Assembly: GCF_988243305.1 (NCBI RefSeq)
Contig: NZ_OZ547136.1
Strand: one strand, 5' to 3'
Length of the DNA: 64,000 nucleotides
Shown here: one piece after another, positions 55,850 to 55,965 of the stretch
Position numbering within the stretch: the stretch's first letter is position 1
Layout: each line of letters begins with the position of its first letter
The notes under the pieces: model-generated
Told to the model about the DNA's origin: nothing
The model's database searches: none
The model's input: only the letters and a program-made list of their open reading frames with translations
Made by a program: the position numbers and the translations under genes

Positions 55850-55965
<116 letters not shown>

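Follow-up and report, generated by a model that had tools for sequence, protein, structure and literature searches.

That the insertion sequence IS621 targets a specific site within REP elements has been known since 2003 (Choi, Ohta & Ohtsubo, as cited in PMC1525189), and the 11-mer ATCAGGCCTAC has since been named as a naturally observed target of this element (Durrant et al. 2024, PMC11208160). In the 64-kb stretch of E. coli DNA analysed here (hereafter, the window) an exact copy of this 11-mer lies in the spacer between nrdD and nrdG, and no insertion is found in it. The question raised by the locus is whether this copy is a genuine target available to IS621 and, if so, whether its emptiness carries any biological meaning.

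Much of the groundwork has already been laid. Durrant et al. extracted 272 distinct natural IS621 target sites, mapped the insertions genome-wide in BL21(DE3) (173 sites, of which 129 are ATCAGGCCTAC and 144 lie in REPs) and published high-throughput single- and double-mismatch screens together with a comparison of the natural and experimental target logos (PMC11208160). The same work established that the guide encodes ATCGGGCCTAC, that the natural target forms an rG:dT wobble at position 4, where mismatches are tolerated, and that a 3' GCA flank provides extended pairing with the right guide; the extended right guide raises the specificity, and GCA is present at four of the ten most-hit BL21 sites.

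Results

The nrdD-nrdG spacer and its REP elements

The window represents the tamB-mpl-nrdDG-treBC-mgtA region of the E. coli chromosome, 24 kb of it being 100% identical to several RefSeq strains. The gene limits at the locus were transferred from the RefSeq annotation:

55349-55813, minus strand: nrdG, anaerobic RNR activase, downstream gene of the nrdDG operon
55814-55972, minus strand: nrdD-nrdG intercistronic spacer, 159 bp
55864-55900, plus strand: Y-type REP GCCTGATGCGACGCTGTCGCGTCTTATCAGGCCTACA, equal at 35 of 37 positions to the REP query GCCTGATGCGACGCTGGCGCGTCTTATCAGGCCTACG given in the Methods of Durrant et al.
55889-55899, plus strand: ATCAGGCCTAC, with the left target ATCAGGC, the core CT and the right target AC, followed by ACA; potential IS621 target, unoccupied
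55916-55950, minus strand: Z-type REP, identical at 35 of 35 positions to the published query TGCCGGATGCGGCGTAAACGCCTTATCCGGCCTAC, with the tail ATCCGGCCTAC-ATT at 55916-55926
55973-58111, minus strand: nrdD, anaerobic ribonucleoside-triphosphate reductase, upstream gene of the operon

The spacer is a BIME in which the Y and Z REPs stand tail to tail, accompanied by a degenerate REP remnant located at about 55826-55860. The element at 55864-55900 is a GC-rich imperfect palindrome that matches the REP consensus, is extragenic and belongs to a multicopy family; its hairpin arms (55864-55877 and 55882-55895) are 14 nt each, 86% complementary and separated by a 4-nt loop. The first-pass annotation had placed the motif inside a REP palindrome, which is correct as far as its overlap with the 3' arm is concerned, but the motif runs 4 nt (CTAC) past the stem: the left target half lies within the 3' arm, while the CT core and the AC are just outside the stem. 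As mRNA, the spacer folds stably (MFE -66.6 kcal/mol, z = -4.8), and the everyday role of the sequence at 55889 is most likely to serve the nrdDG transcript as a REP hairpin between the two cistrons.

In all these respects the locus resembles the Y-type REPs and BIMEs long described in E. coli (Gilson, Bachellier, Hofnung; Espeli & Boccard): it, too, is an extragenic, GC-rich imperfect palindrome, about 35 nt long, has a Z-type REP as its tail-to-tail partner and is repeated many times in every E. coli genome. No trait sets this member apart, its BIME subtype (short linker, no IHF-type L motif) having been judged by eye. A 1.2-kb query around the site found a median of 26 places per complete E. 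coli genome, because it contains REPs. An Rfam search of the nrdD-nrdG BIME gave no match; in particular, naRNA4, the REP-derived nucleoid-associated ncRNA 4, did not match this tail-to-tail arrangement, whereas it did match the head-to-head Z/Y REP pairs at 46499-46577 and 52740-52817 (plus strand). The linker 3' of the Y REP (55896-55915) is polymorphic, with CTAC-AGCCGTTGCC and CTAC-ACAGCCGTTGCC as the two forms when the window is compared with another copy of the spacer; the difference is a 2-bp indel, and as a result the 3' flank of the potential target changes from ACA to AGC.

Copies of the motif in the window

A search of both strands of the window located the exact 11-mer twice, at 55889-55899 and at 52810-52820, both on the plus strand, in agreement with the earlier report of a second perfect motif in the nrdD-nrdG REP. 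Six further copies carry one mismatch, one of them being the tail of the nrdD-nrdG Z-type REP listed above; the other five, and the perfect copy at 52810, are as follows:

30532-30542, plus strand: REP tail ATCCGGCCTAC-GGT
37516-37526, minus strand: ACCAGGCCTAC-AAA (C at position 2), tail of the Z-type REP that partners the occupied Y REP of the msrA-paeA BIME
46496-46506, minus strand: REP tail ATCCGGCCTAC-GAA in the ytfQ-ytfR BIME
46570-46580, plus strand: REP tail ATCATGCCTAC-TGG in the ytfQ-ytfR BIME
52737-52747, minus strand: ATCCGGCCTAC-GCA (C at position 4) in the mpl-yjgA BIME, empty in the window
52810-52820, plus strand: ATCAGGCCTAC-AGG, unoccupied perfect motif in the mpl-yjgA BIME

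The three one-mismatch variants reported earlier all exist (ATCCGGCCTAC at 30532, ATCATGCCTAC at 46570 and ACCAGGCCTAC at 37516), although the one put at about 46590 actually starts at 46570, and three more copies of ATCCGGCCTAC, at 46496, 52737 and 55916, had been missed, the last of them in the nrdD-nrdG spacer itself.

That the 11-mer is a chance occurrence without relation to REPs or IS621 has practically no probability. The shortness of the motif is all that speaks for such a reading, and the composition-based expectation is 0.03 exact copies per 64 kb on both strands, as compared with two intact copies and one split copy observed. With up to one mismatch allowed there are 8 matches where 0.62 are expected, and none of 100 shuffled sequences reached 8. 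A recognisable REP tail is present at every copy, all eight lying 3' of a REP body (GCCTGATGCG...CTT or GCCGGATGCG...CTT), and the surplus is fully explained by the membership of these copies in the REP family.

The resident IS621 and its bridge RNA

The window contains a complete IS621, situated in the msrA-paeA BIME, about 18 kb from the 55889 site:

36200-37476, plus strand: complete IS621, 1,277 bp, 100% identical to RefSeq-annotated IS621
36217-36390, plus strand: region encoding the bridge RNA; its 174 nt are identical to the wild-type IS621 sequence in the Durrant data
starting at 36263, plus strand: left target guide ATCGGGCCT of the bridge RNA
starting at 36287, plus strand: extended right target guide TGCGTAG of the bridge RNA
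36391-37371, plus strand: IS621 recombinase ORF, 326 aa, recognised by its Pfam domains

Both recombinase domains, the RuvC-like DEDD domain at the N-terminus and the Tnp domain at the C-terminus, are present in the ORF (DEDD_Tnp_IS110, PF01548, 1.5e-24, 87 bits; Transposase_20, PF02371, 2.4e-26, 92 bits), the element has no terminal inverted repeats, carries its bridge RNA in the left end and is flanked by CT, and its right-end and bridge RNA strings are identical to those in Supplementary Table 1 and Supplementary Data 1 of Durrant et al. An Rfam search of the left end gave no bridge-RNA family match at the gathering threshold. The insertion reads AATCAGGC-CT, then IS621, then CT-ACGCAG, the CT core being duplicated with one copy on each side. 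The occupied target can be reconstructed from 36191-36199 and 37479-37483 as ATCAGGCCTAC-GCA, which is the third perfect copy in the window. The inventory of the window therefore comprises one occupied perfect target, two empty perfect targets and six one-mismatch sites.

Several other forms of IS621 were encountered in the course of the analysis. In many genomes, including that of an O25b:H4-ST131 strain, the only trace of IS621 is one isolated stretch of 79 bp that carries no annotation (e.g., NZ_CP103672.1, 2401090-2401168); it is 92% identical to nt 1-79 of the element, which span the 5' stem-loop and the left target guide of the bridge RNA. Length variants include a 1,391-bp copy in two pieces with 114 bp extra (NZ_CP114592.1, 4577623-4579013), a metagenome copy in which the left and right ends are 1,176 bp apart, and elements of about 1,262 bp, 96% identical to IS621, in strains such as NU14, 536 and APEC O2:K1. 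In another locus, a copy of 1,274 bp occupies ATCGGGCCT, which matches the guide exactly. Rfam matches to a group II intron domain and to the ALIL pseudoknot, the programmed-frameshift element of the IS3 family, at 613-699 and 3226-3342 (both minus strand) indicate the presence of other mobile elements near the start of the window.

Complementarity of the nrdD-nrdG site to the resident guides

Over its 11 nt the 55889 site forms 10 Watson-Crick pairs with the guides of the window's own IS621, position 4 being a wobble. The site had been called perfect, which is true with respect to the natural consensus but not with respect to the guide, since ATCGGGCCTAC is what the guide encodes and position 4 pairs as rG:dT. 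At the optional extension (positions 12-14) two of the three positions pair, giving 12 Watson-Crick pairs, one wobble and one mismatch over 14 nt; it is the 3' flank, ACA rather than GCA, that breaks the optional extended pairing with the right guide.

The mechanism of insertion is established for IS621, and by analogy a similar course of events may be proposed for the 55889 copy. Y-type REPs end in ...CTTATCAGGCCTAC, and it is for exactly that tail that the bridge-RNA guide of IS621 has evolved, which makes every intact Y REP a potential site of attachment for the element. In the insertion, the left target guide AUCGGGCCU would pair with the bottom strand of ATCAGGC-CT, with the rG:dT wobble at position 4, and the right target guide GUAG, with its optional UGC extension, would pair with the top strand CTAC(GCA). 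Strand exchange by the DEDD/serine recombinase would then take place at the CT core, the partner being the circular donor junction ACAGTAT-CT-TGTAT, and the product would be an element with CT on either side.

Natural occupancy of the window's sites

The occupancy of each site was assessed in 5,426 complete E. coli genomes. The queries were chimeric, each consisting of a 150-bp site-specific flank ending in the CT core joined to the first 150 bp of IS621, and a genome was counted as occupied if a single alignment covered at least 80% of the query. Matches to IS621 are present in 2,244 of these genomes, at 13,175 places in all (median 5, maximum 28 per genome). The sites of the window scored as follows:

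36191 (split by the IS), ATCAGGCCTAC-GCA, msrA-paeA BIME: occupied in 123 genomes
52737, minus strand, ATCCGGCCTAC-GCA, mpl-yjgA BIME: occupied in 8 genomes, the junction read in one of them
37516, minus strand, ACCAGGCCTAC-AAA, msrA-paeA BIME: occupied in 4 genomes, the junction read in NZ_CP126602.1
46570, plus strand, ATCATGCCTAC-TGG, ytfQ-ytfR BIME: at most 14 genomes, a bound only
52810, plus strand, ATCAGGCCTAC-AGG, mpl-yjgA BIME: 0 records
55889, plus strand, ATCAGGCCTAC-ACA, nrdD-nrdG spacer: 0 genomes
55916, minus strand, ATCCGGCCTAC-ATT, nrdD-nrdG spacer: 0 genomes
30532, plus strand, ATCCGGCCTAC-GGT, REP at 30532: 0 genomes
46496, minus strand, ATCCGGCCTAC-GAA, ytfQ-ytfR BIME: 0 genomes

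The bound for 46570 comes from an empty-site query, which found the ytfQ-ytfR BIME uninterrupted in 5,411 of 5,425 genomes. The 52810 query returned no records but one genome at the 80% threshold, the best of the alignments listed covering 77-78%. Of 5,425 genomes, 5,423 have an intact nrdD-nrdG spacer.

IS621 occupies the C4 variant ATCCGGCCTAC-GCA of the mpl-yjgA BIME in 8 genomes, in which the perfect ATCAGGCCTAC-AGG, at a distance of 63 bp, has remained empty. Strain Ec1117 (NZ_CP126602.1) carries IS621 at ACCAGGCCTAC-AAA, which differs from the guide at two positions, with the perfect ATCAGGCCTAC-GCA vacant 40 bp downstream; this insertion is a natural counterexample to the ranking of sites by complementarity. 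Thus, in two BIMEs an imperfect REP has been used while a perfect 11-mer 40-70 bp away remained empty, and the 11-mer alone is no predictor of natural use among the sites of the window. The earlier suggestion that natural insertions could inform on mismatch tolerance is borne out by the C4 variant (8 genomes) and the C2 variant (4 genomes). As for the catalogue of IS621 insertion sites against REP variants that the first-pass annotation had called for, it had already been published (PMC11208160), and the counts of 123, 8 and 4 genomes given above are a small version of it.

Two further collections were searched for insertions at the same loci. Supplementary Data 2 of Durrant et al. lists 834 natural targets for the guide ATCGGGCCTAC; these include the occupied site of the window (seq311), 52810 (seq93), 52737 (seq682/683) and the 37516 locus (seq687). 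Absent from this list are the nrdD-nrdG site, in either of its alleles, and the sites at 55916, 30532, 46496 and 46570. In metagenome contigs, an exact scan for the right junction specific to the nrdD-nrdG site gave no match; as a positive control, the generic IS621 right-end junction was found at 40 loci with 29 unique 30-nt right flanks, 37 of the 40 having AC after the core, and the nrdD-nrdG site is not among them. The other three right junctions have AT in place of AC after the CT core and flanks that are not REP-like; they may be natural off-target insertions.

Discussion

Taken together, these results make it very probable that the motif at 55889 belongs to a Y-type REP of the nrdD-nrdG BIME, of which it forms the 3' arm and the tail, and that it is a genuinely available but unused target of IS621. 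The site has the 11-nt match with the CT core and is complementary to both guides, and the early description of it as unoccupied holds for the window, whose complete IS621 sits at 36200-37476. Since this element is intact, has a wild-type bridge RNA and is only about 18 kb away, the site is to be regarded as available rather than out of reach. Compared with the natural IS621 target as described by Choi (2003), Durrant et al. (2024, PMC11208160) and Hiraizumi et al. (2024, PMC11208158), the nrdD-nrdG copy shares the identical 11 nt, the CT core, the REP tail and the known rG:dT wobble in its pairing with the resident guides; it differs in its ACA flank in place of GCA and in that no insertion there is on record in the 5,426 complete genomes, the metagenome junctions or the list of 834 targets. 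The strategy of landing safely in an extragenic palindrome present in many copies is likewise known for IS1397 and ISKpn1 (IS3 family) and for ISPpu9 and ISPpu10 (IS110 family) (PMC1525189; bioRxiv 10.1101/2025.01.17.633520), although these are other elements acting on other REP families, and IS1397 inserts in the loop of the palindrome.

The emptiness of the nrdD-nrdG site probably does not mean much, since in any given genome the majority of sites are empty: genomes that carry IS621 have a median of 5 places matching it, against more than 100 such sites per genome, so that to be unused is the normal state. Nevertheless, in about 390 kb of E. coli DNA examined we found seven distinct perfect ATCAGGCCTAC loci unoccupied, of which six are recorded as occupied elsewhere (in the genome census, the metagenome junctions or the Durrant list), and the nrdD-nrdG site, the sole exception, is also the only one of the seven that could be placed inside an operon. 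This weakly hints at selection against splitting nrdDG. An IS621 between the two genes would cut nrdG off from the nrdD promoter, and such insertions might be purged from populations because the loss of the class III RNR activase would be costly for a gut anaerobe; we consider it possible, though rather unlikely, that the site is disfavoured in nature for this reason. The description of nrdDG as an operon (PMC12176259) and the position of the used sites of the other two BIMEs outside operons (convergent mpl/yjgA; msrA/paeA) are in line with this explanation. However, one unused site of seven fits chance (about 0.15 if about 85% of sites are seen used), the occupancy counts are not phylogenetically independent and are inflated by clonal inheritance, and the loci are not a random sample, having come from DNA near other IS621 copies. 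Moreover, nrdG could have a promoter of its own. The broader proposition that the nrdD-nrdG site is a rare perfect target kept systematically empty, either because insertions exert a polar effect on nrdG and are selected against in the anaerobic gut or because the intra-operon context blocks access of the bridge RNA, seems to us quite unlikely.

A different kind of explanation would locate the cause in the site itself, which would be intrinsically weaker if natural use tracked the pairing over 14 nt rather than 11 nt, so that only sites with the GCA flank and its 7-bp pairing with the right guide were used efficiently. The two most-occupied sites of the window (123 and 8 genomes) are indeed the two with this flank, and the frequency of GCA among the most-hit BL21 sites and the gain in specificity from the extended right guide mentioned above (PMC11208160) point in the same direction. 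Yet the GCA flank is present in only 44 of the 596 Durrant natural targets with the perfect 11-mer and in only 3 of the 40 metagenome junctions, figures that are to be weighed against the background frequency of GCA among all sites; and in the 4 genomes that use ACCAGGCCTAC-AAA it is a perfect site with GCA, 40 bp away, that was passed over. Suggested by four sites of the window and undercut by these two frequencies and by the Ec1117 insertion, the GCA flank was rejected as a determinant of natural use, and that the nrdD-nrdG site is empty on its account appears very unlikely. A preference for BIME-1, recognised by the IHF-like L motif TGCAATATATTGAAT after CTAC, was also considered and dropped: the motif is present in 14 of 32 unique flanks of occupied sites and in 3 of 8 unoccupied perfect sites, the background sample being too small (Fisher p = 1).

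We therefore return to the reading of the nrdD-nrdG site as unremarkable in both respects, as a Y-type REP tail and as an empty IS621 target. The biology involved is already known and nothing new is added to it by this locus: the REP target family, the 11-mer, the tolerance at position 4, the GCA extension, the catalogue of 272 sites and the mismatch screen have all been published. The local value of the observation lies in annotation, as the window provides a compact worked example of how the 11-mer by itself fails to tell which REP will be used. If the site were in fact kept empty, the comparison of natural with experimental usage would map those REPs that are selectively 'safe'; and if perfect sites within operons proved to be under-used in nature as compared with experiment, this would separate the chemistry of the target from selection.
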